From a virus, in the UHGV virus genome UHGV-0095853: DNA of 35,246 nt. One strand, 5' to 3'. This document shows positions 91 through 35,041 of this stretch, piece by piece (position 1 is the first letter of the stretch; every line of letters begins with the position of its first letter). The translations under genes were made by a program, and so were the position numbers. The notes under the pieces are model-generated. The model did not search any database. It was given only the letters and a program-made list of their open reading frames with translations, and was not told the DNA's origin.

Positions 91-116
91 AAACGCCGCT
101 ACTGCGGCGTTTTTTA
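91..116. terminator. Bidirectional intrinsic terminator at the 3' end of dam
   Basis: GC-rich hairpin (acgccgc / gcggcgt, loop tact) flanked by an A-run on one side and TTTTT on the other; overlaps the dam stop codon. Confidence 0.5.
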
Positions 117-1692: not shown

Positions 1693-2581
1693 CGCCAATG
1701 GCCTCCACCAGCGCGTTAAACAGTGCAGATAATTCGCCCGTAAAGAGCACGAAATCAGCATCAAATCGTTGTGCTACATCCTCCCGGTCGATATCGTCGT
1801 TCTGGTCATAGAGATCATCACAGAATGTCAGGGCTTTGATACTCATATCATCGTTGACTCTGAACGACGCACGGTCCATCCAGTTAATTGCAACGGTCGT
1901 AGCTACTTTCCCCGCCTCAATGTGAGACATAATCTCGTCGGACTGTAGATCAACTTTGTTGCAGCGAACGGCACCACCATTATCGAGCAGACCCTTTAAT
2001 GTGGCGTCTTCACCTGCTGTAAATCCGGCAGGGAAGCCGCTTTTAAACCACTCGGTCATTGTAATTTCCAGCGGTTCGCGTGGTGTGAATGGAATGACAG
2101 GCAGGCTGCCGAGCGACTTTCGCAATAAAGCCAGCTGGTCCTCTGCCTTTTTGGCGCTGCTTGCCTCAACGAATACCAGATGGTTGCTGCGGTCGATCAG
2201 GATTTTGGCGAGTGATTTTCTCGTGAACGCGCGAGGCAAAAGTGAATGCAGGACTTCATCTTTAAGACTGTCTCTTTCCGTTTTCTTCAGCTTGCGGGCT
2301 TGCTCTTCTTCGAGTTTCAGGACTTTTTTCTGCAACTCTTCCTTGAGCACCTGCGAGGGGAGAATTTTTTCTTCTCGCTTATGCTGTATTAGCAGAAAAC
2401 CCTGGTATTCATGGGTGAGGTTGTCACCAAGAACAGGTGTCCAACCGACTTTAGCTGTGTCCTGAGAACCGCAAGGAGTAAACACGAATTTGCTAAGAGC
2501 ATCGGATACTTCTGCGGCACTCCAGTTAACTTCACGTGAAAGACGATAGATGAAGATGTTTTTGAAAGCGACTGATCTCAT
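1676..2581 (-). CDS. rdgC: Recombination-associated protein RdgC homologue (P1 HrdC-like)
   Basis: Full-length collinearity with E. coli RdgC ([58 protein letters not shown]). Confidence 0.85.
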
Positions 2582-2587
2582 GTTTCA

Positions 2588-2631
2588 CCAATTGTGTTAG
2601 AAAATTCTATTCAATTATCTAACACAATTGG
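2588..2631. promoter_or_regulatory. Perfect 14-bp inverted repeat (CCAATTGTGTTAGA / TCTAACACAATTGG, 16-bp spacer) ending 7 nt before the rdgC start codon
   Basis: Read directly; arms carry the recurrent TGTGTTAGA operator core; not followed by a U-run so not a terminator. Confidence 0.5.
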
Positions 2632-2640
2632 ATGTGTTTT

Positions 2641-3294
2641 CTATCCCTTCTTGAAATCAAAGTTGCTTGCGATAGCCTGGAAGGTGCCTCCAGCCTTGAA
2701 ATCAATATTTTCGTCGGCTGTCACAGTAATGTTTTTGCCATTAACGCTGATGTTATCGGCTGATTTGACGTTAACACTCCCTCCCGCATTCACTACTACA
2801 TCAGCCGGACCAATGATGTATATCTGCCCTGATTCATTCATTCCAATCCTTGAGCCTGCTGCCGTATTCGCTATTTCATATCCACCGCCAGCCGTTCGCA
2901 CTTCGAGCACATTGTTGCGGTGAATCACGAAATCTTTTGTCGCCGAAAATTGCGGGCGGGGAGGCGCTCCGTCTACTTCTGGTGGCGTCCAGCCGCTACC
3001 ATTGCCTGACGCCTCCGGCGCGACGTTTGGTACTCCGCCAGGCGCATCCTGAGCTGCGCCAACTATCATTGGGCGTCTGGTATCAATTCGACCATTAACA
3101 TCCAGATAAGGAAACTCTACCCATACCAGGTCGCCTTTTACTGTAGGTACAAACGCGTTACCTATGGGTAACAGGTATTCTGCCCAGGGTAGATCGTCAT
3201 CAGGAACGCCATTCCAGTCTGGTAAAACACGGACCTGAGCACGCATAAGCCCTGCCGGGTGCACAGTTCCAACAATTTGCGCTCTACGCTTCAT
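2641..3294 (-). CDS. Phage protein of unknown function; N-terminal OB-fold-like region and C-terminal Gly/Asn-rich beta-repeat resembling gpV/gp45-type baseplate spikes (tentative)
   Basis: VRVLPDWNG..LPWAE..VKGDLVWVEF pattern then VNAGGSVNVKSADNISVNGKNITV repeats; ATG overlaps upstream stop (ATGA). Confidence 0.55.
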   Translation of the reverse strand: MKRRAQIVGTVHPAGLMRAQVRVLPDWNGVPDDDLPWAEYLLPIGNAFVPTVKGDLVWVEFPYLDVNGRIDTRRPMIVGAAQDAPGGVPNVAPEASGNGSGWTPPEVDGAPPRPQFSATKDFVIHRNNVLEVRTAGGGYEIANTAAGSRIGMNESGQIYIIGPADVVVNAGGSVNVKSADNISVNGKNITVTADENIDFKAGGTFQAIASNFDFKKG

Positions 3295-4271
3295 TTGTTC
3301 GGCACTCCCAATATCATTCGTGTTGTGTAGCCTACGCGGTCTTCAAAGTGCGCAACATTTTTTACTATCAGCTTACGGGGCATTGATTCATCAATGCGGT
3401 TTTCCTGGTCATAGCGGTATACGATAATCTCTATCACCATCCCCGGTTTTATATCAGGATTGCCTGCGACTTCTATATCCATTTTGGGGACGAGAGACAG
3501 CTGCATATTGCGAAGAGTTTCCATATCAGAGTCGGATATATAACGCACTGGGAGTGAGCTATCGCCATATTCGACGTAGCCATCGGTCATGGAATACCCA
3601 ACAAAACGATATTGATTCTTTGCTGTTGTCGCATGTTCCTGTTGGAGTAGGCGCATTTTGGACAAAGTGTATTCTGCTTTAGGGTTATTCCCCTCGTAGG
3701 TAAATGATGGCGTTTGCTTCATCAGATCAGCCAGGGTGTAAAAGTTAAATTCCCCCCGGCATACCCAACATAATGCACCTTTGTCTCGCGCTATCTCCGA
3801 AAGCATTTTTGACGGTTTGTCACCGGCATTCAGATGATATGTAACTGCGCGTTTTAGCACGCTGCTGGTAATTTTAAGCTTGCCGGAATATGCCTTGAAT
3901 ATAGCGTCTGGTGTTTTGTTGGTATGTAAATTTGTGCGCGGGGAGGGGATCTTAAACCTGCGCACGTCTTCACTGACAGCAATAACGGTAACAACATCAC
4001 CAGCCAGCATTGCAGACGTAACAAAGAAATCTGTTTTAAAAGTGCCTGCATTACCGTTTGGATCGCCCATTTCAGCCACCAGCGATGCACCGTATTTGGC
4101 TTTCCAGTCATCAATTACGGTGCCGGTAGCGTCATGAATTTCCAGTTTTAGCAAAGGGGCTTTGAGGCTGGTTTTTTCTACATATACTGCGGTAAAAATC
4201 CAGTCTCGTGGCACTTTGTTATCGTTAATGAGCACTGACTGTAGAAAATATTGTTGTAACTCCTGGGCCAC
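3291..4271 (-). CDS. Hypothetical protein (326 aa)
   Basis: Long ORF, GTG start 4 nt after upstream stop, co-oriented in a 4-gene operon. Confidence 0.6.
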   Translation of the reverse strand: MAQELQQYFLQSVLINDNKVPRDWIFTAVYVEKTSLKAPLLKLEIHDATGTVIDDWKAKYGASLVAEMGDPNGNAGTFKTDFFVTSAMLAGDVVTVIAVSEDVRRFKIPSPRTNLHTNKTPDAIFKAYSGKLKITSSVLKRAVTYHLNAGDKPSKMLSEIARDKGALCWVCRGEFNFYTLADLMKQTPSFTYEGNNPKAEYTLSKMRLLQQEHATTAKNQYRFVGYSMTDGYVEYGDSSLPVRYISDSDMETLRNMQLSLVPKMDIEVAGNPDIKPGMVIEIIVYRYDQENRIDESMPRKLIVKNVAHFEDRVGYTTRMILGVPNK

Positions 4272-4274
4272 TTA

Positions 4275-5042
4275 TCACCCCATAGATATCGAGGTTTCGG
4301 TAATAATACGTTTTGCGTCCAACTCCCATGCTGTGATCACGTCTGCAATCACACTTATCGGCGCTTGTGTGGCATAAATACGCTCTTCTCCAATTGGTGC
4401 TGAAACATCCGTAAAGCCGACTTCTTTGGCATCCTGTATCGAGCAAATCAGCGGGACCGGGACACGAACAAGGTGAGTGGTTGCTTCAAATTGTGTACCT
4501 GTCATCAGGCGAAGCCGTGCGCCCAGCGAATTACACATCAGACTCATGGTCGCTTTATCAGTTGCCATTAACGTAACGTCATACGTCAGAATGGCCTGGG
4601 TGTATTCCAGTTCTGCTAAAGGCATTCCGGTATCCGGTTCGCAAAAACTGGCTACTTTTTTGCGGTCAATCTGCTGATCATCGTTGATATAATTGATATC
4701 CATATTGCGTGAGATATTGACCAGGGGGAGAGCATCCCGGTTAATGTTCTGGTTTTCAGGTTTTCTCCCTTGCCCGGTATTTGCGCGACGAACTGCTTTA
4801 AGAAACTCGATCGCATTGTCGAAACGGGCCACATAGACACGCTCTGCTGGTGGACGATTCAGGAATGACGCAAAGCGTTTTTCTTCCGGCGCGGGGGCCA
4901 CCAGTAAGATATCAGAAAAAATGTTGCTGATTAGCGTCGCAAACGCGTTATCCACGTTTTCAAAGCCCGTGGTCTGGAATTTTCCTGTGCGTGAGGTTTG
5001 CCATTCACCTGTTCGTGCCAGGAGGGTTTTATTTGAAGTCAT
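4275..5042 (-). CDS. Hypothetical protein (255 aa)
   Basis: Long ORF with ATG overlapping upstream stop (ATGA). Confidence 0.6.
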   Translation of the reverse strand: MTSNKTLLARTGEWQTSRTGKFQTTGFENVDNAFATLISNIFSDILLVAPAPEEKRFASFLNRPPAERVYVARFDNAIEFLKAVRRANTGQGRKPENQNINRDALPLVNISRNMDINYINDDQQIDRKKVASFCEPDTGMPLAELEYTQAILTYDVTLMATDKATMSLMCNSLGARLRLMTGTQFEATTHLVRVPVPLICSIQDAKEVGFTDVSAPIGEERIYATQAPISVIADVITAWELDAKRIITETSISMG

Positions 5043-5830
5043 TCGATCACTCCGTTTTGAGTCGTATCAAAATTTCTGGCAGGTATGCAGTAGTAAAGCG
5101 AACCAACATGCTGTGTGCCGTAGCTAAAAATACGGTGCACGTACCACCAGCGGCGGGCTACGCCGTTTACCATCTCTTCATTCCATTCAAGAATTGAGCC
5201 GACGGGGACGTTATTTGCTGCAATACGCAGAATCAGAACATCATCGGTTAAGCCATCCTGCTCACCGTCTGCGTCAATCGCATGGAAAGAGTCACGCCCG
5301 TCAGGGTTATCCAGCACATAAACGATTTCAGGTTCCTGGTAAGTCAGTTCGCGTTGGTTGTTATCCAGTTCAGTGAATGACTCTTCTCCTGTTTCGTCGC
5401 TGACTACCCCATATGTGCCAACATCTGGTCGATATAAGAGAGCCTGAAACGCGTCTGGGCTGGATTCAATAATCAGCATCCAGTCTGCGCGGATTTGGTC
5501 ATTAAAGGCTTTATGCCCGTTATAGCGTGCTTTTAACTGTGGAGTCGGTTCTCTGCCAGCCAGGGAAGGTGGAAGTATGGCTATATCTGATTCGCCAGCG
5601 TCCGGAGTAAGGCCACCGTTGCTATCAGCAAAATTATCATGGCTATCAGCTTCGGCGGTGGATTGCTCTTCCAGAATGCTGAATGAATCCGGTCCGGCAT
5701 TGCCATGTTCCGGCGCGCTTCCTGCATCCGCTTCAACCGTCGCTGGCGTTTCTCTCTGCGTGCTGTCATGTTCTGACTCCTTACTTGCCAGGTTTGCATC
5801 GTCAGCAAACCATTCGTCAAAACGGCCCAT
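5039..5830 (-). CDS. Hypothetical protein with acidic low-complexity N-terminal half
   Basis: ORF 5039..5872; preferred start ATG 5830 (MGRFDEW) with GAGG 6 nt upstream. Confidence 0.55.
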   Translation of the reverse strand: MGRFDEWFADDANLASKESEHDSTQRETPATVEADAGSAPEHGNAGPDSFSILEEQSTAEADSHDNFADSNGGLTPDAGESDIAILPPSLAGREPTPQLKARYNGHKAFNDQIRADWMLIIESSPDAFQALLYRPDVGTYGVVSDETGEESFTELDNNQRELTYQEPEIVYVLDNPDGRDSFHAIDADGEQDGLTDDVLILRIAANNVPVGSILEWNEEMVNGVARRWWYVHRIFSYGTQHVGSLYYCIPARNFDTTQNGVIE

Positions 5831-5906
5831 AAGCATCCTCAAAGGTCGATTTATCAGGTATCGAGGGTGCATTGTCTGGAGATTGTGATTTCAATTCATA
5901 TCCCAG

Positions 5907-5951
5907 CATGGGACTAAAGTGCTTTACATTGTCCCATATCGGGACTACTAT
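5907..5951 (+). promoter_or_regulatory. higBA promoter with overlapping inverted repeat (ATGGGAC ... GTCCCAT), probable HigA operator
   Basis: TTTACA (5922-5927) / TACTAT (5946-5951) hexamers; inverted repeat 5907-5913 / 5930-5936 brackets the -35. Confidence 0.45.
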
Positions 5952-5975
5952 ACTTTCAGCGAGAAGGAATCTGTG

Positions 5976-6278
5976 ATGAAAATAATTTCGGTAAAAACAC
6001 TAAGGGATTTCTGGGCGAAGAATCCCGATGCAGAACAGCCATTAAAGGCATGGGTTGATGAAGCAACAAAGGCTGACTGGAAAAATCCGGCTGAGATCAA
6101 AGAACAGTACCGGACAGCCAGCATCCTTAAAAACAGGCGCGTGGTGTTCAATATTAAGGGAAATGATTACAGGTTAATTGTCGCAATTGCTTATCAGCGA
6201 GGATGGATGTTCGTTAAGTTTATTGGAACACATAAGGAATACGATGCCATTGAAGCGGATACAATAGAACTGGAGTAA
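5976..6278 (+). CDS. higB: Type II toxin HigB-family (RelE-fold mRNA interferase)
   Basis: About 100 aa; FNIKGNDYRLI and FIGTHKEYD signatures; directly followed by an HTH antitoxin. Confidence 0.75.
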   Translation: MKIISVKTLRDFWAKNPDAEQPLKAWVDEATKADWKNPAEIKEQYRTASILKNRRVVFNIKGNDYRLIVAIAYQRGWMFVKFIGTHKEYDAIEADTIELE

Positions 6279-6281
6279 ATC

Positions 6282-6641
6282 ATGAACATTAAACCTATCC
6301 GTACAGAACAAGATTATGAGGCCGCACTGCGTGCGGTCGAACCGATGTTCGATAACGAACCGGAAATGAACACACCGGAAGGCGATTTCTTTGAAGTAAT
6401 GTGCCTGCTCATTGAAGAGTACGAGAAAAAGCATTACCCAATTGAGCCACCATCACCTATTGAAGCCATTAAATTCCGTATGGAACAGCAAGGGCTGACC
6501 GTGAAGGATCTGGAACCGGCGATTGGTAAGTCAAATCGTGTTTACGAAGTGCTAAATGGGACACGAAATTTAACGTTACCTATGATTCGTCGTTTACATT
6601 CCCAGTTTGGCATTCCTCTTGAAAGCCTGGTTGGTGTATGA
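6282..6641 (+). CDS. higA: HigA-family antitoxin (XRE-type HTH)
   Basis: C-terminal HTH (LTVKDLEPAIGKSNRVYEVLNGTRNLTLPMIRRL); 3-nt gap after higB. Confidence 0.75.
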   Translation: MNIKPIRTEQDYEAALRAVEPMFDNEPEMNTPEGDFFEVMCLLIEEYEKKHYPIEPPSPIEAIKFRMEQQGLTVKDLEPAIGKSNRVYEVLNGTRNLTLPMIRRLHSQFGIPLESLVGV

Positions 6642-6645
6642 GTTT

Positions 6646-6672
6646 GGCGGTCTGTATGACCGCCTTTGTTGT
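6646..6672 (+). terminator. Intrinsic terminator after higA
   Basis: Hairpin ggcggtc-tgtat-gaccgcc followed by TTTGTTGT. Confidence 0.6.
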
Positions 6673-6675
6673 CAA

Positions 6676-7872
6676 TCAAGAACCTTTCTTCACGTACTCC
6701 ATAAACATTTTTTCAGCTTGCTCAGGTGACGTTCCTGCCATGACCAGTGCATCAATGAACGCTTGCTTCTTCAGTGCGAATTGATCGGCAAGGCGTTGCT
6801 GAAGCTCCTTGTTTTTCTGTTTCTCACGTTGCAAGGCTGCTTCTTTTGCTGCTGCCCGTTTTTTCTGTGCATCGGACAACTTTCTGGCCCTGGTCAGCTG
6901 GTCACGTAGCTTGTCAATCTTCCCGTTGTCCTTTGCCAGTTTTGTGCTTAAAGCGGCCTGGCGTTTCTGATAGAGCCTCCATTCGCGCTTGGCGGCTTCA
7001 ACGTTCGTTTTACTGCTACGATTGCGATTAAACTCCTTCTCGTCTTCTTTTGAGAAGTGTTTAGTTGTACGGCGGCGATCGTCACCAAATGCAATTTGCG
7101 TTGCGGCCTTTTGTAACGCACGAGCAATACTCATTTGCCAACTGGCGGACTGTAACCGCGTCATTGAGTGGATCACGTGTTTACAGGCGACGCCTTGTAG
7201 CTTAGGGTTACGAACTTTTGGATAGGCGTATTCTTTTGGCGGGGCCAGGGCAAAGTTACCCGCAGTAGCGATGTAACGATACCAGTATTGATGACGACCA
7301 CAGTCACAATCGAAAGACACCCGCCCGGCGCACAGTGATTTAGTGATTTTCAGAGCTGATTTATCGTCTTCTGCGATGTCATCGACCATCTGATCCCATT
7401 CTTCAAAGCGTATCCGGACGATATGGTGCTGGTGGACGGATATATCCGATGCTTCTACGCGGATATTAATCACGTTGTGGCGAAGAGATACAGGTGTAGC
7501 TCTTTTGATACCAGATCCGTCATCCACGGCGTTATTTGCACGCTTAATATCGATTGCCTGGCTGGATGCCACCAGCTGGGCGTATGTGATGCCAGCCGTC
7601 TTGCTGTCATATTTTTCGCGTGTTTTACTCCGTAGCTTTTCGAAACCTTTCAGGTCGTCTCGCGTGAAGAACGTGCCGCCTTTTTTCTTCCCTAACTTGA
7701 GAATATCTTCGGCGGATTTGTTCCTCAGTCTACCTGGCGTCAGCGTCCGGTGAGCTTGTCGGCGCTTACGGGTTTGTTCTTTCCTGATAAGGTCGAATAA
7801 ACGCGTGAAGTCCTTAGAGGACAGGCCGTCAGTGATATAGCGCCCGTCCTGGTTTTTCAGGAAATCAGGCAT
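6676..7872 (-). CDS. SWIM-type zinc-finger protein with Lys/Glu-rich C-terminal coiled coil; function unknown
   Basis: CxC...CxH motif (FDCDCGRHQYWYRY...GVACKHV); C-terminal 130 aa heptad-like K/E/Q-rich; GGAG 8 nt before ATG; overlaps upstream gene by 8 nt. Confidence 0.55.
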   Translation of the reverse strand: MPDFLKNQDGRYITDGLSSKDFTRLFDLIRKEQTRKRRQAHRTLTPGRLRNKSAEDILKLGKKKGGTFFTRDDLKGFEKLRSKTREKYDSKTAGITYAQLVASSQAIDIKRANNAVDDGSGIKRATPVSLRHNVINIRVEASDISVHQHHIVRIRFEEWDQMVDDIAEDDKSALKITKSLCAGRVSFDCDCGRHQYWYRYIATAGNFALAPPKEYAYPKVRNPKLQGVACKHVIHSMTRLQSASWQMSIARALQKAATQIAFGDDRRRTTKHFSKEDEKEFNRNRSSKTNVEAAKREWRLYQKRQAALSTKLAKDNGKIDKLRDQLTRARKLSDAQKKRAAAKEAALQREKQKNKELQQRLADQFALKKQAFIDALVMAGTSPEQAEKMFMEYVKKGS

Positions 7873-8194
7873 TTTCTATCTCCGGTTCCGCGCTTGCGTA
7901 ATCACGGATCTTGTTCCTCAGCCATGCCACATCAGGAAGAGTTAACGTGGTCCCTGCGGGCATTTCTTCCATTTCTGACTCATGGCCCACCAGCACCCGG
8001 AATACCCAGCGCAAATCTGCATTGCCATACGCCCTGTAGGCTGCAAGGTCTGAACGATATACTTCATCAATCTTTATCGTGTACTGGAAATTATCAGAGT
8101 GATACTCCGATACCCGCTTAATCATTTCCTGGTGAAACAGCGCACGAAAAATATCGTCTTCAATGTACCTATCGTCGAGTCTGCTATAGCCCAT
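7865..8194 (-). CDS. Hypothetical protein (109 aa)
   Basis: ATG with GAGAGG 8 nt upstream; translationally coupled to the SWIM protein gene. Confidence 0.55.
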   Translation of the reverse strand: MGYSRLDDRYIEDDIFRALFHQEMIKRVSEYHSDNFQYTIKIDEVYRSDLAAYRAYGNADLRWVFRVLVGHESEMEEMPAGTTLTLPDVAWLRNKIRDYASAEPEIENA

Positions 8195-8387
8195 AACAAA
8201 GCCTCTCAGTCATAACCTGGGGGAAACTGTATGCAGGGTGTGAAATGCGAGAAACAGACAGGCCACCAGTTCAGGGGGATGTGGTTCATAAATCCCCTCA
8301 CTGGTGACAAGTGACTTTCATTAATCTTTATGCGGGGGCCAGCTTCATTTGCTGGCATTAGATTAAAAATTAAACGGAGTGAATGAC

Positions 8388-8522
8388 ATGGATGTTATTC
8401 TAGAATTGTTAAAGCTTATTGATCTGTTTATGAACGCCTCATTGACCACTCAAATACTGGCGTCAATATTTTTGTTACTCTTCTACCTGGTATTGAGGGA
8501 GTTAACAAAGCTACTAATGTGA
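8388..8522 (+). CDS. Possible small hydrophobic peptide (44 aa, one predicted TM helix)
   Basis: ATG 8 nt after GGAG; MDVILELLKLIDLFMNASLTTQILASIFLLLFYLVLRELTKLLM; convergent with and abutting gene 8523..9176. Confidence 0.25.
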   Translation: MDVILELLKLIDLFMNASLTTQILASIFLLLFYLVLRELTKLLM

Positions 8523-9176
8523 TCAAAGTATCACGGTATCTTCATCAACTTCTTTCCCAGTCAGTGACTTTGGCTGGGAGGTGCCTGCTTTAACTTTTTC
8601 ATGCCCAATAATGGACAGGAACGAAGCGAGTATGCCTGTTTTTTGCTCTTTCTCGACTGTACCGGTCATCTGCTCTACGTAATCCGCACTGGCAACATTG
8701 TGGTATACGGTCGCGTAGCAACACAGGATCATCAAAATATGCTCCGGCCTGATATCCTGCCAGTTCACCCGGTAGACTTCTTCTCCGTTACCGTTGTATT
8801 CGGTGTCAACGATGGAGTCAGGGATTTCGAAAGCACCTTTGTTATTTTGCGGCAGGGATAATAGCTTCTGGAGTTTTAACTCTCTGTATCTTTCCATCCC
8901 GACGATGATTGCTGCTCTGCCATCGGCATGACGGGTCTTGAGAGTCACCTGGCTTGCTCCGGTGCCAGCGGAGATCGTTGGCGTAATTTCGTCTACCAGT
9001 ACCTTAAATTTGCTTTTCCGCAGGGCTGCTATAGCTGGAGGAATTTTTTGCTTTTGCTCCAATGCTGACGCGGGAAGGGGTTTTACTTCGTTAATAATGA
9101 GAGCACCGTCTTTCAGTATTGCAGTGAGCATTTGAGGCTTGCTGGTGGTCAGGCTGAATATTGCGATCTTTTCCAT
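8523..9176 (-). CDS. Hypothetical protein (217 aa)
   Basis: ATG 9176 (MEKIAIF) with GGAGGAAGG 7 nt upstream; the longer ORF-track start (9218) is a GTG inside a terminator hairpin. Confidence 0.6.
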   Translation of the reverse strand: MEKIAIFSLTTSKPQMLTAILKDGALIINEVKPLPASALEQKQKIPPAIAALRKSKFKVLVDEITPTISAGTGASQVTLKTRHADGRAAIIVGMERYRELKLQKLLSLPQNNKGAFEIPDSIVDTEYNGNGEEVYRVNWQDIRPEHILMILCCYATVYHNVASADYVEQMTGTVEKEQKTGILASFLSIIGHEKVKAGTSQPKSLTGKEVDEDTVIL

Positions 9177-9203
9177 TGTCCTTCCTCCACGGATGACGGA
9201 TAC

Positions 9204-9227
9204 AAAAAAAGGCCGCACATGGCGGCC
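9204..9227 (-). terminator. Intrinsic-terminator-like hairpin plus U7 tract in the leader of the 8523..9176 operon
   Basis: On the minus strand: GGCCGC-catgt-GCGGCC then TTTTTTT, 27 nt upstream of the ATG. Confidence 0.5.
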
Positions 9228-9444
9228 TGCTTTGGCGTTATGACTCCCTACCGCGCTTCGGCTGAAAGTTAATCGTCAAAAGAACCTTCAACGGGAGCCG
9301 TTAGCGCGATGGATTATGTGCAGTTTGTGATTTCCAAAATAGTGTCAACCACTTTTTGTGGATTTTATTTTTTGACCGAAATTTGGCCTAAATCATGTTG
9401 ATGTAGTTAATTGTTTTTATAACATAAAACTTCATTTTGTTTAC

Positions 9445-10068
9445 ATGAAGGATGGTGTAGTGAAGTTAAGGGTTTTAGGGGCCGCGCTCGCGGCTATGTT
9501 GGGATGCGTATCTGCTAATACTGCCAATGCAACTGCGTTACCTGCACAATTCAGGGCAGGGCAGCAGGTTATGAATAACGCTGGTGGGGATCATTCACAA
9601 GCGGCCATTATGGACTTTTGCAAGAGGGAGGGCATTCCATTACGGCCTGTTGGAACTCAGTTTATTGGTAAAACTGACTTTTGCGTTTTTGCATATACAG
9701 CATATCTGACGGACAAAGCTATAACAAAAACAGGTTATTCAACCAAAGATACTCTTTCCAGATTAAGTCAGGGATGGCAGCAATTCGAAGTGTATCGCCA
9801 GCAAGGATTAGGTGAGTTATTGCAACCACTTTTTATGCTTGCGTTGGTGCCAGAGGGGCAGCAATTTTTGGTTAAAAAGGGAATGCTTCGCCAAAGTGAT
9901 ATTGCCGGGTTCGATAGCATGATGGCTTATGAGCGCAAACTAACCGAGCAGCGAAATAAAAAACCATCTGCTTCATGTGTGCAAAGTAAAACAGCAGAAT
10001 ACAGTGCAGTAGCCGGGCCTTTAGCCAAACAAATGGCAGAGCAATGGTGTAAAAAATACGGGCAATAA
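9445..10068 (+). CDS. Exported protein of unknown function
   Basis: N-terminal signal-peptide-like segment (LRVLGAALAAMLGCVSANTANA). Confidence 0.6.
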   Translation: MKDGVVKLRVLGAALAAMLGCVSANTANATALPAQFRAGQQVMNNAGGDHSQAAIMDFCKREGIPLRPVGTQFIGKTDFCVFAYTAYLTDKAITKTGYSTKDTLSRLSQGWQQFEVYRQQGLGELLQPLFMLALVPEGQQFLVKKGMLRQSDIAGFDSMMAYERKLTEQRNKKPSASCVQSKTAEYSAVAGPLAKQMAEQWCKKYGQ

Positions 10069-10088
10069 GTTACGCAGCGGAGGCAGAA

Positions 10089-10481
10089 TTGAAAAGATTG
10101 GCTATTGCTTTACTGGCGTCTTTCCCTTTGATCGCGAGCGCCGGAAATTTACAAGTTAAGTGCGGTCGGTTTGATATAAAAATCTATCCGGATGCCATAT
10201 TTCTGAATGGGAATAAGGTTGATAACGCACACCGAAAAACTGAATCTGACGTAATGAGCTATGTGTTCCAGGAGTATGCGGAGATGGGGGGAACTTACAC
10301 GCTGTACTCGCTGGATGTTCCTTCTCGCGGTGATATGACATTATCCCATCAATGGCAGAACGCCGATGGCGAAGCTCTGCGCGAGGTTAAAACAGAAAAA
10401 TGTGGCACTTTCCATTCTTTTAAAGGGAAAGCGCCAAATGTTAAATCTGTGCTTGAAAAACAGCGCGCAGGTGAGCTTTAA
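10089..10481 (+). CDS. Exported protein of unknown function
   Basis: Signal peptide MKRLAIALLASFPLIASA; two Cys in the mature part. Confidence 0.6.
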   Translation: MKRLAIALLASFPLIASAGNLQVKCGRFDIKIYPDAIFLNGNKVDNAHRKTESDVMSYVFQEYAEMGGTYTLYSLDVPSRGDMTLSHQWQNADGEALREVKTEKCGTFHSFKGKAPNVKSVLEKQRAGEL

Positions 10482-10868
10482 ACACCTTTAACCACGGAGA
10501 TGCCGTTCCCTGCACGATAGCGGCGGGGAACGGAATTCTCCATCAGGTCACGAATTACTCCCGCCTCATGTAGTCCCACTGTTTCCCAGTATCTGTTTGT
10601 CACCAATTACGCCCCGTTCCGCCAGGGGAAGGTATGAACGAGCTTCTGCTTCGGTTGCAGCCATGACGCAGATATACAGGTGTTTTTGGCAGGAATAGAA
10701 ACGCCAGATAAATTCAGAATGAGTTGGGGTGGGGATAGTAGCGATATTGGCAGCCTCCTTTGACTAAGTTAAGGAGCTACCGCGTGAGGTTCCAATCCCG
10801 GCACCCGTTTTTCTAAGGTGCCGTAGAAATATACCCCACGATAATGCCAGGGCGCAACAGTCAGTATT

Positions 10869-11036
10869 TTATGCTTTGGCGGATTTCTTCCTGGCTTGCT
10901 TGCAGGCGTAGGCCATTGCTTTAGCTTTCACTTCATCCAGCTTCCCGGTGATCACTTCTTTTCCGAGAGTGACAAACCAGTCATAGCAACCGCCAGTGAT
11001 GTTCTGGATTTGAAAGTTGAGGTAGCGAACGGTCAT
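10869..11036 (-). CDS. Possible small protein (55 aa)
   Basis: ATG with GGGGGTG 7 nt upstream; protein-like composition (MTVRYLNFQIQNITGGCYDWFVTLGKEVITGKLDEVKAKAMAYACKQARKKSAKA). Confidence 0.3.
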   Translation of the reverse strand: MTVRYLNFQIQNITGGCYDWFVTLGKEVITGKLDEVKAKAMAYACKQARKKSAKA

Positions 11037-11354
11037 TTTGACACCCCCAGCGCGAGTAAAGAATGCAGATTATCGCGTGAGTGGCGGACAACGAGTGATG
11101 GGAAAAGACAGTAGCTGTTCATAGTGTAGTGACTCCTTGCTTTCGGAGCCGCCATCGACTGTTCCACGGTCTGGTGGCGGCGCAATAAAGGCTGGAACAC
11201 CGTGAGTCAACGGGGGCTTTTCAGCCACCTATATTGCACCGCCATTGGTATGGCGGCGGCAATCATACGAAAAACTAAATAGTTTGTCTCAAAAAGTTGA
11301 CCGGTGTGCCAATCGGTAGTGAATGTACATCGGAGCATTTTTCAATTCAACTTA

Positions 11355-11371
11355 AAATGTTAGAAAACTAA
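11355..11371 (+). promoter_or_regulatory. Single operator-like site AAATGTTAGAAAACTAA at the 3' end of ref
   Basis: Near-identical to the site 25 nt upstream of gene 28613..29650. Confidence 0.35.
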
Positions 11372-11946
11372 TTTATCAATTCAATCGCCATCTGATACAA
11401 CGCCATTTCATCGGCATTGTGCCGCATGAAATCTGCTTTTCCGCCTATTTTTCCGTCAGCATGAACAGGGACCAGCCAGGGATATTGTTCTCGGACCTCG
11501 GCTGGCGCTGCGTACTGGTGGTGCCATTTACACAAAGGGAGGACATATTTATGCGCGTTCTCTGCCGTTCTCCCGAAGATATGGTGCAGGGATACCACTG
11601 GGCTATGTTGCCCGTGAATATGGCAGGCAATGCAGGGGAGAGTACCGATAGCGGTCTGTATCCGGCGTTCATCGGCTGTGAGTGATCTTCCTTTCAGGCC
11701 GCGTGACGTGCGTGTTTTTTTGGACGGAGCTGATACAGCTTTATCTTTTCTCCGCTGTTCATATTGCTTTGCTTTTTCAATTTTCTTTTGCCGATATTCA
11801 GGCGATGCGGCTTTTTCTCTCGCTCGCTGCTGCTGGCGTTGAGCTTGTTGAAGGCGCTTTGCCCTTTGTTCCTCTCGCCAGGCCGGGTCAGCCAATTTTT
11901 GCATGGCTTTTTGTCTCTGTTTCTCCCAATAACTCTGTTTCTGCAT
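11368..11946 (-). CDS. ref: Ref-like HNH endonuclease (P1 recombination enhancement function family)
   Basis: About 80-aa highly charged, probably disordered N-terminus then Cys/His-rich core (CIACHIHG...HHIFGR...CKWHH); divergent promoter carries operator pair. Confidence 0.6.
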   Translation of the reverse strand: MQKQSYWEKQRQKAMQKLADPAWREEQRAKRLQQAQRQQQRAREKAASPEYRQKKIEKAKQYEQRRKDKAVSAPSKKTRTSRGLKGRSLTADERRIQTAIGTLPCIACHIHGQHSPVVSLHHIFGRTAENAHKYVLPLCKWHHQYAAPAEVREQYPWLVPVHADGKIGGKADFMRHNADEMALYQMAIELIN

Positions 11947-11990
11947 GATGGCAGTCTCTTACTTTTCAACGATTTTTCTATGATTGATCA

Positions 11991-12031
11991 AAATGGTTAG
12001 ATATTCAAAATTGATTTTCTAACACAAAACA
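11991..12031. promoter_or_regulatory. Inverted operator pair (GTTAGA-N17-TCTAAC) in the divergent ref / DUF4406 promoter region
   Basis: GGTTAGATA at 11995-12003 and TTTTCTAACAC at 12015-12025, followed by a TAATAT -10-like hexamer. Confidence 0.45.
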
Positions 12032-12063
12032 TTAATATCATTCCTGATAACTGTTTGGAGGAC

Positions 12064-12219
12064 ATGATGCTTATAGCTTTAAGTGCGATCCACCAGCCAT
12101 CTGTGAATGAAATTGGCCTGTTCTATGTGTTGTTTTTCGGGGCGTTGGCGCTACTTGAGCTTGGTATTGAGCTTTTCGCAGTGCTTATGTTTTGCGTCAC
12201 GATTTTGGGGAAATTTTGA
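12064..12219 (+). CDS. Small hydrophobic membrane peptide (51 aa)
   Basis: GGAGG immediately upstream of tandem ATGs; stop overlaps the next gene's ATG (TGATG). Confidence 0.4.
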   Translation: MMLIALSAIHQPSVNEIGLFYVLFFGALALLELGIELFAVLMFCVTILGKF

Positions 12220-12842
12220 TGGTGAAACGTGTTTTGAAAATTTACATCGCGGGGCCGATGACTGGTTATCCAGATTACAACCGTGCTGCGTTTAATGCGA
12301 AAGCGAGCGAGTTGATGGCTGAAGGGCATATCGTTCTGAATCCAGCTGTGTTACCTGGTGGCCTTTGTCAGAGTGAATACATGGATATTTGCCTGGCAAT
12401 GGTGCGTTCTGCTGATGCGATCTATCTGCTTAAGGGATGGGATGTGTCCGCAGGAGCACGTGCAGAACACGCTCTGGCTGAAAAACTTGGGTTGACGGTA
12501 ATTTATGAAGCACCATCTGACACAGATTGCAGAATGGCAGCGCATCTTTACCGTGAACTGGTCGATGCGTTACGTGATGTTGCTATTGAATGTCACGGCA
12601 CGGATCAGCTTCGCGCCCGCTTAAGCAATACCCTTTCCAGTTACCTGTCTTTAGCTGAAGGATACAACCTCCGGCAGCGGAGAATGGTCAAATTAATCAC
12701 GCGTTTATCTCAATCCCTGGCAAATGCCGAACCAACTAATCCGCTAGCTAATGACGCAATGAATTATCTGAAGTCATGCGGCGTTGTTTCTGAAGATGCA
12801 GTTCGTTTTGTGGAGTTTATGTCTCAGAGGATGTCGGCGTGA
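12219..12842 (+). CDS. DUF4406-like protein (nucleoside 2-deoxyribosyltransferase-like fold) with about 100-aa C-terminal extension
   Basis: N-terminal KIYIAGPMTG...VLNP...ADAIYLLKGWDVSAGARAEH pattern; ATG at 12219 preferred over the TTG at 12192. Confidence 0.55.
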   Translation: MVKRVLKIYIAGPMTGYPDYNRAAFNAKASELMAEGHIVLNPAVLPGGLCQSEYMDICLAMVRSADAIYLLKGWDVSAGARAEHALAEKLGLTVIYEAPSDTDCRMAAHLYRELVDALRDVAIECHGTDQLRARLSNTLSSYLSLAEGYNLRQRRMVKLITRLSQSLANAEPTNPLANDAMNYLKSCGVVSEDAVRFVEFMSQRMSA

Positions 12843-13156
12843 GCTGGCGGGGATGGGGAAGGGCGGAAATCATGATACTCCGCCAGTGCGCCGGGACTAT
12901 GACAGTCGAGACTATTGGGAGACTGATCGGACGTACCGGTGGCGCAGTCAGGACTAAAGCGCGGCAACTGCGGATCAGCATGATTCTGAAAGGAGACTTT
13001 CACCAGTCAGCCAAATACCGGCAGAGCGATATAGAACTGGCGCGGCAGCTTCATCAGTGTGGTGTTCCCCGCCGTGAGATCGCGGAAAAACTCGAAATGC
13101 CCCTGGGCATGATTAATCAGTACGTTTATTTCGAAAGGAGAGTGTATGAAGTCTGA
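12839..13156 (+). CDS. Hypothetical protein (105 aa), possible HTH
   Basis: GTG start overlapping upstream stop; GVPRREIAEKLEM helix-turn-helix-like segment. Confidence 0.45.
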   Translation: MSWRGWGRAEIMILRQCAGTMTVETIGRLIGRTGGAVRTKARQLRISMILKGDFHQSAKYRQSDIELARQLHQCGVPRREIAEKLEMPLGMINQYVYFERRVYEV

Positions 13157-13628
13157 AGGTTTAACGCCCGCACAACTGGCAGAGCGTAACGCTGAGTATG
13201 TAACGGAAATTTCCCGACTTGAGCAAGAACGCTCGGCGCTGGCGGCGGAGAATGTTGGGCTGAAACATGCAATGGCTGTAACTCTTGAGCATGTGTCGGT
13301 CACGGATGCAGGGCAGGCCGGAGTTGCTGCAATGATTATCAACGATGCTCTGCACCACAGCGAAACCCCAGCCACCGATGCTTTTATGGCTGAAGGGAAG
13401 ACTGAAGCACGCAAGGAAGGCGCTTATTTTGTGGCGAACAGAATGCTGGCTGCCTGGAAAGCTGGTTTTATTGATGATACTGCGAAGAACGCCGCGGATA
13501 TTGCCCGGATGATTCTTACCTCTACTGAGTTTATGGCTAATGCGCCGGAAGGCGATTTTGATCGCTCATTCTCTGATGGCGTTCTCGAAGATATCGCCGA
13601 ACAGCTTCGTAAAGGAGTCATCCAGTGA
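13146..13628 (+). CDS. Ea22-like family protein (C-terminal module paralogue)
   Basis: Shares PATDAF(M/L)AE and C-terminal AEQLRKG with 17394..18026; AGGAG before ATG. Confidence 0.55.
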   Translation: MKSEGLTPAQLAERNAEYVTEISRLEQERSALAAENVGLKHAMAVTLEHVSVTDAGQAGVAAMIINDALHHSETPATDAFMAEGKTEARKEGAYFVANRMLAAWKAGFIDDTAKNAADIARMILTSTEFMANAPEGDFDRSFSDGVLEDIAEQLRKGVIQ

Positions 13629-14266
13629 GCGAGCTTTATTATCAGACGTTACGTGAACGTTTTTCACCGAAACCAGCGCCTAAATGCTCTGTTTGTGGCG
13701 AGGAAATGTCAATGCAGCGCATATCTGGATCACATGTTGTTTATGCCTGTTCCGGCATGGAGGACGACGGATGCTTCAAAACTGGACGAACTTATGCTGA
13801 CGAGCATTACAAAAAATCGCGCATAACAGTAGTTGATGATAGCGATCCTGATGTGATTGAACTGCTGGACGAGAACATGGAGATGGCTCTAACGCTTGAG
13901 AAGCTGCGTGTTGAGCTGGAGGCTGCTAAACAGCGTATTGCCGAATATGAAAGCAATTGCGGGGCGATGGTGGCGGAATGCCAAAGCAAAAAAGCAGCTC
14001 TTGAGGCAATTCTTAGCCATTGCCCAATTAATCATCCAGATATAGACATCGCATGTATAGCGAACATCGCTCATAACGAATTAGGCGGGGCGAAAAGCAC
14101 TACATCTAAGGCATACCTTGTAGAAATACAGGCACAAGGGGTGGAGGCATTCGCTTTGACGATGCGCGATACCGGAGATGATCCATTTTTTGATTCCGTT
14201 GCTTCTGCTTGCGCGGATGCAGCTGATAGGTTCGCTGCCCAGCTTCGAAAAGGAGGCAAACGGTGA
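13625..14266 (+). CDS. Ea22-like family protein
   Basis: N-terminus MSELYYQTLRER and central LTLEKLRVELEAAKQR as in lambda Ea22-type proteins; GTG start overlapping upstream stop. Confidence 0.6.
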   Translation: MSELYYQTLRERFSPKPAPKCSVCGEEMSMQRISGSHVVYACSGMEDDGCFKTGRTYADEHYKKSRITVVDDSDPDVIELLDENMEMALTLEKLRVELEAAKQRIAEYESNCGAMVAECQSKKAALEAILSHCPINHPDIDIACIANIAHNELGGAKSTTSKAYLVEIQAQGVEAFALTMRDTGDDPFFDSVASACADAADRFAAQLRKGGKR

Positions 14267-22170: not shown

Positions 22171-22199
22171 ATCCCCTCAATTCACAGAGGGGATTTTTG
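22171..22199 (+). terminator. Intrinsic terminator after gene 21399..22157
   Basis: Hairpin atcccctc-aattcaca-gaggggat followed by TTTTT. Confidence 0.55.
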
Positions 22200-23236: not shown

Positions 23237-23249
23237 GGCGCATAAAGAA

Positions 23250-23277
23250 GCCCGCCAGACCTGGCGGGCTTTTTGTT
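23250..23277. terminator. Bidirectional intrinsic terminator between convergent humD and the terminase-paralogue operon
   Basis: Stem gcccgccag / ctggcgggc followed by TTTTTGTT. Confidence 0.65.
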
Positions 23278-34466: not shown

Positions 34467-34542
34467 TGGTGGCCCCTACCGGACTTGAACCGGTGACCGT
34501 GCGATTATGAGTCGCCAGCTCTAACCACTGAGCTAAAGGGCC
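34467..34542 (-). tRNA. tRNA with CAU anticodon, closest to tRNA-Ile2 (ileX/ileY type, lysidine-modified)
   Basis: GGCCCTTTAGCTCAGTGGTTAGAGCTGGCGACTCATAATCGCACGGTCACCGGTTCAAGTCCGGTAGGGGCCACCA; about 10 differences from E. coli ileX as recalled. Confidence 0.8.
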
Positions 34543-34551
34543 AGATTACTG

Positions 34552-34680
34552 TTAATTCCGCTTACGCTTTTTGCCAGAACCGCGTAAGGCTTTTGCCGCT
34601 TGCTCGACCCCATATGCAACCACCAGCAGAAATAAAAATGTCCAACCAGGGTTCTTATCGGCAAAGGCCCAAAAATCCAT
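34552..34680 (-). CDS. Possible small membrane protein (42 aa)
   Basis: MDFWAFADKNPGWTFLFLLVVAYGVEQAAKALRGSGKKRKRN; one hydrophobic helix then basic tail; weak RBS. Confidence 0.3.
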   Translation of the reverse strand: MDFWAFADKNPGWTFLFLLVVAYGVEQAAKALRGSGKKRKRN

Positions 34681-34954
34681 CACTTGCAGCTACCTTTTAA
34701 GACAAAACGCCATTGCTGTTAGATTGCGGTGCCGGGTGCCTCCCGGTGACGTTAACCAGTTAACAATTAACGCCGGGATGTTTGACTTAACTATTGAGGA
34801 AAATTGTTTTAACTGTTCCGCGTGCGCTTAGCCGCATTCACCGCAATGGTAAGAGCACTTGGCTGGCTGGGCGGCGATGACGCCTGTACGCATTTGGTGA
34901 TCCGGTTCTGCTTCCGGCATTCGCTTAATTAGCCAAATACTCTTAACGTTGCGC

Positions 34955-35041
34955 TGGCGGAGAGTAATGGAATCGAACCATCATCGCTTGCGCAATGGGA
35001 CGGTTTTCAAGACCGCTTGAGCACCATGCTCCCTACTCTCC
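34955..35041 (-). tRNA. tRNA-like gene, class II (long variable arm), apparent anticodon UGA (Ser), atypical D-arm
   Basis: 7-bp acceptor stem GGAGAGT/ACTCTCC, T-loop TTCGATT, anticodon loop CTTGAAA, 3' GCCA. Confidence 0.45.

Follow-up and report, generated by a model that had tools for sequence, protein, structure and literature searches.

The hairpin directly before the maturation gene mat of a D6-like phage-plasmid is the end of a conserved, previously unannotated structured leader RNA of about 105 nt, which lies between a late promoter and mat in P1/D6-like phage-plasmids. The hairpin itself is most likely an intrinsic (Rho-independent) terminator, as predicted from its sequence, at the 3′ end of this structured mat leader, and mat is probably expressible only when RNA polymerase reads through it. 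We somewhat favor a reading in which the leader is a cis-acting attenuator that would set, and possibly regulate, the amount of Mat made from a strong late promoter, and whose terminated product would be a discrete late RNA. What was observed directly is a set of conserved sequence features, a structure that covaries, constant linkage to mat, and no other promoter from which mat could be transcribed.

The window, that is, the whole stretch of 35,246 nucleotides analyzed here, covers 35 of the about 90 kb of a D6-like (P1-family) phage-plasmid; it is near-identical to ~90 kb E. coli plasmids and shares 97% identity with phage D6. In both the plasmids and D6, mat is annotated as starting at the ATG at 9176, and every Mat homologue aligns from the residue encoded there. 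Mat has an RNase H-like fold, the nearest structures being large-terminase nuclease domains. The hairpin is located in a 283-bp divergent intergenic region, and because the upstream neighbor (9460..10068) is on the other strand, the hairpin is not the terminator of another gene; Pantoea-type loci, moreover, have a separate terminator upstream of the promoter. Beyond this neighbor, transcription of an immI-like region (~10478..12135, minus strand) points at the mat region; it comprises ash-like and icd-like genes, a regulator, and a truncated Rha/Ant gene. No C4 antisense RNA matched at the Rfam gathering score anywhere in the window.

The sequence-only reading had assigned the hairpin to the leader of a three-gene module. 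Genes 26 and 25 do follow mat, but one strict unit is improbable, because a 328-nt noncoding insert (8195..8522) separates mat from gene 26 and carries at its 3′ end a second, weaker late-box-like sequence (Table 1); in Klebsiella-type elements both genes overlap. Genes 26 and 25 may therefore have their own promoter, mat, 26, and 25 are probably not strictly a single unit in the window, and the terminator would most directly govern mat. At the same mat/26 junction, a Raoultella element (L100) carries an inserted hicAB toxin-antitoxin pair (2230..3069 of that element). A higBA module is located downstream of gene 25 in the window.

As read directly from the minus strand, the hairpin is AGGCCGC-CATGT-GCGGCCT, with its stem at 9228..9222 and 9216..9210 and its loop at 9221..9217. 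The 7-bp stem contains 6 G-C pairs, carries a 5-nt loop, and has a ΔG of −12.5 kcal/mol; a T7 run (9210..9204) abuts the stem, 7 of the 8 nt 3′ of the stem being U, and 27 nt (9203..9177) lie between the T7 run and the mat ATG (9176..9174). The hairpin with seven U reported in the sequence-only reading at 27 nt before this ATG is thus present exactly there, although the GGCCGC/GCGGCC described is the 6-bp core of the 7-bp stem. These are features of an intrinsic terminator, namely, a G+C-rich perfect stem of 5 to 10 bp, a loop of 3 to 8 nt, and an adjoining U-tract. On the plus strand the hairpin is followed by GCTTTGGC and no T-run, indicating that it is unidirectional. A consensus scan ranked it second among 24 terminator-like sites in 4000-14000. 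When a strict definition was applied (perfect 6-7 bp stem with 5 or more G/C, loop of 3-8 nt, T at 6 or more of 8 positions), 7 sites were found on both strands of the whole window, whereas 100 dinucleotide shuffles averaged 0.09 and never gave more than 1. The remaining strong hairpins of this kind occurred at 92..111, 6646..6664, 22172..22193, and 23249..23270; the first and the last scored as terminators on both strands. When set against the genes, the one at 6646..6664 fell between gene 25 and the higBA module, where a gene ends, and not between a promoter and a first gene.

Table 1. Features of the mat region in the window, listed in the direction of transcription
Feature	Position	Strand	Description and basis
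TTGACA, -35-like hexamer	9343..9348	-	24 nt upstream of the -10; sequence and other lineages
Late-promoter box AAATCACAAACT	9322..9333	-	Short inverted arms TTTG...CAAA; analogy with the annotated P1 LPmat -22 box
-10 hexamer CATAAT	9313..9318	-	Sequence
Whole mat leader RNA, ~104 nt	9204..9307	-	Three-way junction plus predicted intrinsic terminator; covariance model match, covariation tests
Outer stem (helix P1)	9235..9307	-	GCG 9307..9305 with CGC 9237..9235; GGCUCCC 9299..9293 with GGGAGUC 9248..9242
Hairpin P2	9264..9289	-	GAAGGUU 9289..9283 with AACUUUC 9270..9264
Hairpin P3	9250..9262	-	GCCG 9262..9259 with CGGU 9253..9250; inside the invariant block GCGCGG
Terminator stem-loop AGGCCGC-CAUGU-GCGGCCU	9210..9228	-	Helix 5 of the leader RNA; sequence, scan, folding
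U7 tract	9204..9210	-	Predicted 3′ end of the terminated RNA; sequence, folding
mat Shine-Dalgarno sequence GGAGGAAGG	9180..9188	-	Sequence
mat, "maturation control protein", 217 aa	8523..9176	-	Annotation in near-identical plasmids and phage D6
Candidate second late-promoter box ATTTCACACCCTGCATACAGT, before gene 26	8226..8246	-	Weak; similarity only
Gene 26 homologue (baseplate wedge)	7865..8194	-	Homology
Gene 25 homologue (tail protein)	6676..7872	-	Homology

The promoter-like elements nearest to mat are found upstream of the hairpin, at 9333..9313. The box and -10 region before mat, GAAATCACAAACTGCACATAAT (9335..9313, minus strand), recur as GAAATCACAATCTCCAGACAAT (~5893..5871, minus strand) before the gene 7/24/6 late operon, which has a 12-mer of identical class at 5891..5880. 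These two are the only strong copies of the motif in the window, with inverted arms TTTG..CAAA and ATTG..CAAT, respectively, and the motif common to both, GAAATCACAA(A/T)CT..(C/A)A(T/C)AAT, is unlike the P1 -22 box AAGTGACTT; it is probably the D6-type late promoter. Late gene control in P1/D6-like phage-plasmids is thought to rest on one activator, Lpa, and a P1-type late promoter is defined by a -10 hexamer and a conserved box centered near -22 that recur among late operons, with no functional -35. From the late-type promoter before mat, transcription is predicted to start at ~9307 ± 2 nt. In agreement with this position, the covariance model match described below has its 5′ edge at 9307, 6 nt downstream of the -10, and the distance from the -10 to the outer stem is 6-9 nt in all lineages. 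Further upstream, TTGAC is kept at the same distance from the -10 in other lineages; the role of this TTGACA is uncertain, since its spacing is too long for standard sigma-70. The gene 7 leader, ~35 nt long, has no hairpin, indicating that the terminator is specific to mat.

No promoter-like site was found in any lineage between the hairpin and the ATG or spanning the hairpin, and the claim that the 27 nt leave no room for a promoter holds for the sequences across the hairpin as well. An internal promoter built on the invariant TTGAC of loop L2, or on a -10 in the T-run, was rejected by inspection for want of a usable partner hexamer. The hairpin is therefore placed as in attenuator-type leaders: it follows the promoter and precedes the first gene, all on one strand, and no further promoter lies downstream of it.

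The RNA preceding the terminator folds into an outer stem enclosing two inner hairpins, the first with a U-rich conserved loop, and a short linker (longer in P1) leads from there to the terminator; the same architecture was obtained from independent minimum free energy (MFE) folds of most lineages, P1 included. The loop of P2, L2, is CUUUUGACGAUU (9282..9271, minus strand) and nearly invariant. Conservation spans all of the sequence between the predicted start and the U-tract and includes the blocks GGUUCCC, CUUUUGAC, CUGC, GCGCGG, and GGGAAC. Because the pairing register of P3 shifts between clades, the GCGCGG block may be conserved for reasons besides pairing. Two competing results were set aside. 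The MFE helix CCAUCGCGCU/AGCGCGGUAGG of D6 needs 5 nt upstream of the likely start, and the three-way junction is the MFE structure once the sequence is trimmed; the consensus that RNAalifold derived from plain MAFFT alignments had no meaning, since these alignments misplaced the variable loops. In the Pantoea clade, the MFE structure is a pair of tandem hairpins, the junction lying 2.8 kcal/mol above it. The outer stem and the terminator do not overlap.

Covariation was examined on structural alignments made segment-wise, partly by hand, and checked against the real sequences; an N-padded version kept its columns for 12 rows, the P1 and Xenorhabdus rows not being kept. Standard pairs made up 93.8% of cells in 15 rows, compared with 71% in shuffles and 35-52% with slid partners; in the 12 rows, 94.0% of cells were paired, 12 of 28 pairs changed on both sides, and none of 500 shuffles reached any of five measures. 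Against the ~94% of cells paired in these 12 rows and in the alignment made by the covariance model (below), shuffles gave 81-83% and slid partners 38-50%. All these figures come from alignments fitted to the structure and represent about 8-10 independent lineages. An alignment made by the covariance model gave 94.1% of cells paired, with double changes in all seven inner outer-stem pairs. As examples, GCG/CGC of the outer stem covaries with GCU/AGC, and its inner part reads GGCUCCC/GGGAGUC in D6 and GUUCCC/GGGAAC in Klebsiella, and is wholly swapped in Rosenbergiella (GCGAACC/GGUUCGU), Xenorhabdus (GUUCUGG/CCAGA(U)AC), and L098 (AGAUUCUUU/AAAGAAUCU). The terminator stem was paired in 100% of cells across lineages and showed one compensatory G-C to A-U change; an uncompensated UU-to-AA change was seen in L041. 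The mat leader thus has a conserved structured domain with covariation support, as leaders of the attenuator or riboswitch type do.

These data bear on whether the stretch acts as RNA at all. TTGAC within L2 resembles a -35 hexamer, and the stretch could in principle be a DNA-level element (an operator or a packaging or replication site) or a chance occurrence. We consider this hardly credible, because 12-13 of 28 pairs have changed on both sides and still pair, the pattern differs between the strands, of which only one carries a U-tract, and no -10 was seen on inspection at a usable distance from the internal TTGAC, while chance would produce the 0.09 terminator-like sites per window given above.

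A covariance model was then built from a seed without Xenorhabdus, P1, and six later lineages. In the window it matched 9202..9307 on the minus strand (67.5 bits, E 4e-14) as the sole significant copy. It recovered both Xenorhabdus leaders (27-29 bits) and the six later lineages (39-69 bits), all upstream of mat, and its matches upstream of mat cover Escherichia, Klebsiella, Pantoea, Enterobacter, Rosenbergiella, and Xenorhabdus elements. No Rfam 15 family reached its gathering score in 9100-9500; the sole hit there, isrK (RF01394), reached 14.7 bits (E 0.8) where its gathering score is 50, covered the terminator part only, and was rejected. The mat leader is therefore not a member of any curated RNA family. 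Elsewhere in the window, an Rfam STnc100 match (34725..34845, 47 bits, exactly at the gathering score) is located between tRNA-Met (34470..34542) and tRNA-Ser (34955..35041) in a minus-strand segment at 34467..35041.

To follow the leader across relatives, 86 Mat loci from plasmids, IMG/VR, and phages were sampled, and then 13 from species-representative genomes and metagenome assemblies. In 14 lineages, with Mat identities as low as 34%, a GC hairpin with a U-tract precedes mat; the distance to the mat start is 19-34 nt in 13 of them and about 70 nt in the Raoultella element L100, owing to an insertion. Mat identities were 85% in one group, 77% in L039, 66% in L098, 63% in L099, 53-56% in Klebsiella/Raoultella, about 50% in Pantoea/Enterobacter, 41% in Rosenbergiella, 37-41% in Xenorhabdus, and 34% in P1/P7; the D6-type lineage, L102, and L103 are also among those with a hairpin and U-rich tail before mat. 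The terminator stems vary (AAGCCGC/GCGGCUU, GCCGCC-UUCG-GGCGGC, and GCCGCC/GGUGGC), with a ΔG of −10.6 to −15.2 kcal/mol across lineages, and at least 5 of the 8 bases after the stem are U in 13 of 14 lineages, the exception being the Pantoea clade with its interrupted U-tract UUUCGCCUUUUC (4 of 8 U). The leader was more conserved than the mat coding sequence in 10 of 10 comparisons (66-86% versus 62-73% nucleotide identity), and it stays with mat where mat is apart from genes 26 and 25, as in P1 and L100. The leader is absent from Vibrio (L007) and Enterobacter kobei (L006), at 28% Mat identity, where mat comes directly after a promoter-like palindrome; mat can therefore work without it. In the Vibrio element, mat starts 71 nt after ref, and the palindrome CACTAAGCTTTTAGTG with TAATAT resembles a P1-type late promoter.

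This distribution is relevant to a further explanation, which we regard as decidedly unlikely, that the leader is a constitutive part of the mat mRNA, either a stabilizing or translation-enhancing module near the ribosome-binding site or an insulator, and that polymerase reads through it efficiently. Three observations would fit. Gene 26 of L100 is preceded by a separate late box, and straight after this box come a GC hairpin and U-run (GGCCG-CUAACUUU-CGGCC UUUUGCUUU) and then a ribosome-binding site, with no three-way junction, which suggests a recurrent 5′ module of late mRNAs; the Pantoea clade keeps the hairpin and weakens the U-tract; and the mat Shine-Dalgarno sequence was never sequestered by the hairpin in our folds. 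However, a 7-bp GC stem with U7 is expected to terminate E. coli RNA polymerase efficiently, and 13 of 14 lineages retain a U-rich tract of terminator quality. This explanation would also leave the conserved and covarying three-way junction unaccounted for, and an insulator should rather lie before the promoter, where Pantoea-type loci have their separate terminator.

The mat region of P1 offers a comparison in a well-studied phage. Lehnherr et al. in 1992 reportedly showed dual early/late control of mat experimentally. At the equivalent place, the P1 record (NC_005856) has annotations for Omat, a C1 operator, and for two promoters, Pmat (sigma-70) and LPmat (late). Between LPmat and the conserved Mat start, P1 has a long stem, two inner hairpins, and a GC hairpin with a U-run. 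In the same record mat is annotated from 2716, which puts the hairpin (~2788-2815) inside the coding sequence. Mat proteins all align from the P1 ATG at 2827, so the annotated start seems over-extended by 37 codons (2716..2829); in about half of the P1-clade loci, a deletion of 1-2 nt in the G-run before this ATG throws the upstream ATG out of frame. From this alignment and the frame-breaking deletions, the P1 hairpin is placed in the 5′ untranslated region, and the P1 leader is, on this sequence evidence, hidden by an over-long mat ORF call. That the hairpin lies inside a longer Mat reading frame was rejected on the same two grounds; in the window, extending the mat frame upstream leads only to a GTG within the hairpin loop, which a stop codon immediately precedes. 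The covariance model of the D6 type did not detect the P1 leader, which is therefore analogous in architecture only, homology to the D6-type leader not being demonstrable.

We infer the start site, the actual termination, the read-through dependence, and any regulation of mat from these features, in the following order of events. Transcription would start at the late-type promoter (box 9333..9322, -10 9318..9313) at ~9307, and the first ~75 nt would adopt a closed three-way junction, with the outer stem starting right from the RNA 5′ end. Six nucleotides past the junction, RNA polymerase would meet the canonical terminator (7-bp GC stem, U7), where most transcripts would end at ~9204 to give a discrete late RNA of ~104 nt. 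The mat ribosome-binding site, 14 nt further, would be present only on the read-through fraction, which would be the only mat mRNA. The sequence-only reading had held that mat expression must depend on read-through; this survives as the most economical interpretation, because the hairpin and U-tract are conserved, the nearest promoter-like element is upstream of the hairpin, and none occurs in the 27 nt. Each of the mechanisms put forward in that reading, namely, attenuation, a conditional antiterminator, or a short upstream RNA ending at the hairpin, may apply. The terminator does lie in the leader, but as helix 5 of a conserved ~105-nt structured RNA rather than in isolation. Counting against the attenuator reading are the interrupted U-tract and tandem-hairpin MFE of the Pantoea clade and the absence of the leader from Vibrio and Enterobacter kobei.

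The junction, with the invariant loop CUUUUGAC and the GCGCGG block, would be a likely platform for a modulator of read-through. Folds without the 3′ arm revealed no conserved partner for the terminator 5′ arm, and thus no mutually exclusive antiterminator, the best candidate, GCGGU/GCCGC, having only 5 bp. A classical riboswitch-like switch is therefore not supported, and the sequence gives no evidence for conditional read-through. A leader peptide was also rejected on inspection, since there is no conserved ORF and the Pantoea clade has TGA where the start codon of the D6 frame would be. As the modulator, a protein factor, perhaps Mat, is more likely than a metabolite-driven hairpin switch. 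Mat would be an attractive candidate because proteins of its fold recognize branched nucleic acids; as a stand-alone terminase-nuclease/RuvC-like protein, it is expected to do so. A doubtful, more speculative extension is that the terminated mat leader is a functional late branched RNA bound by Mat, serving either antitermination autoregulation of mat or a maturation ribonucleoprotein. If so, a Mat-leader ribonucleoprotein would take part in particle or DNA maturation, or Mat would antiterminate at the hairpin, and the P1 family would thereby gain its first defined circuit based on antitermination or on an RNA-protein interaction.

The terminated RNA could instead be the main product. It is possible, though unlikely, that the leader is primarily the gene of a trans-acting late sRNA of ~104 nt, its 5′ end enclosed by a stem and its terminator-derived 3′ end a possible binding site of Hfq, with mat expressed by incidental leakage; the invariant L2 loop would, just as improbably, be a seed for pairing with phage or host mRNAs, as in lambda 6S/PreS, P1 c4, and Gifsy-1 IsrK. 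The RNA is compact and closed, with a canonical U-rich terminator in most lineages, its loop and block sequences are conserved beyond pairing needs, the terminator stem sequence is almost invariant, which is unusual for generic terminators, and the leader is more conserved than the adjacent coding sequence. Nevertheless, the RNA is always directly upstream of mat and moves with it; the L2 motif has no second copy and no complement in the 35-kb window, and pairing of L2 with the mat initiation region was rejected because complementarity was not above that of shuffled controls. An Hfq-type U-tail (at least 6 U) is present in the window leader and absent in the Pantoea clade, whose interrupted U-tract would impair both 3′-end formation and Hfq binding. 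Such an sRNA is compatible with the cis-attenuator reading, and the two are not exclusive.

Antitermination by the leader itself was also considered. The leader would then be a cis-acting RNA like put of phage HK022, or a loading site for a phage factor, that makes polymerase termination-resistant, the hairpin being the first terminator overridden and the rest of the late transcription unit also benefiting. Antitermination in P1 has been suspected and is unproven, with "strong indications" that P1 encodes antiterminators and none identified (PMC10695390); an attenuator-antiterminator proposal has been made for ref (Windle et al. 1988, as cited in PMC10695390). Two inner hairpins immediately after the promoter and before the terminator would suit such a role. 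Yet no sequence or Rfam similarity to known antitermination RNA was found, the neighboring late operon has the same promoter box without such a leader, P1 mat is monocistronic with a convergent gene next and so leaves little to antiterminate downstream, and a terminator would be purposeless if every polymerase were modified. We hold this possibility to be very improbable.

The leader matters beyond the window. P1 is among the classic model phages, and resistance genes in Enterobacterales are widely carried by P1/D6-like phage-plasmids, in which late gene control by antitermination or a leader RNA has been suspected but not defined (PMC10695390). No description of a mat leader RNA was found in the searchable literature. 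What is new is a conserved, covarying, terminator-ended leader RNA before an essential maturation gene, a candidate Rfam family, together with a corrected P1 mat start and a defined place to seek a read-through factor or a late phage small RNA. The terminase-nuclease-like fold of Mat is the first structural hint for a protein whose function has been vague since the 1980s.

Among known systems, the P1 mat region (Omat, Pmat, LPmat) has the same gene and the same promoter position as the window, but its leader/terminator stretch is annotated as coding in the P1 record and is not detectably homologous to the D6-type leader, and no C1 operator was identified in the window. HK022 put RNA is, like the mat leader, a cis-acting structured leader near a promoter that concerns termination; in contrast, the terminators that put suppresses are distant ones, none lying 6 nt after it, and no similarity was detected between the two. 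Gifsy-1 IsrK, P1 c4, and P4 CI are phage operon leaders that give a short terminated RNA and a long mRNA isoform, as proposed for mat; unlike c4, which is complementary to ant, the mat leader has no complementarity to the downstream mat, and it is not an IsrK (RF01394) member. Riboswitch and attenuator leaders share with it a promoter-proximal covarying junction, a short linker, a terminator, and a ribosome-binding site, whereas the mat leader has no conserved mutually exclusive antiterminator helix and matches no Rfam family, and its gene context suggests no ligand.

The lambda late leader consists of PR′, qut, and tR′, gives 6S RNA (recently the PreS sRNA), and is acted on by the Q antiterminator. 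Both there and at mat, a late promoter is followed by a short leader and an intrinsic terminator, a predicted one at mat; in lambda the late genes need read-through and a discrete small RNA is made, and the same would hold at mat. Unlike the constitutive lambda promoter, the mat promoter looks activator-dependent (P1 Lpa type), the leader occurs only at mat and not at the neighboring late operon, and it forms a covarying three-way junction. By analogy, the mat leader would work most like the lambda PR′-tR′ late leader and terminator-containing regulatory leaders.
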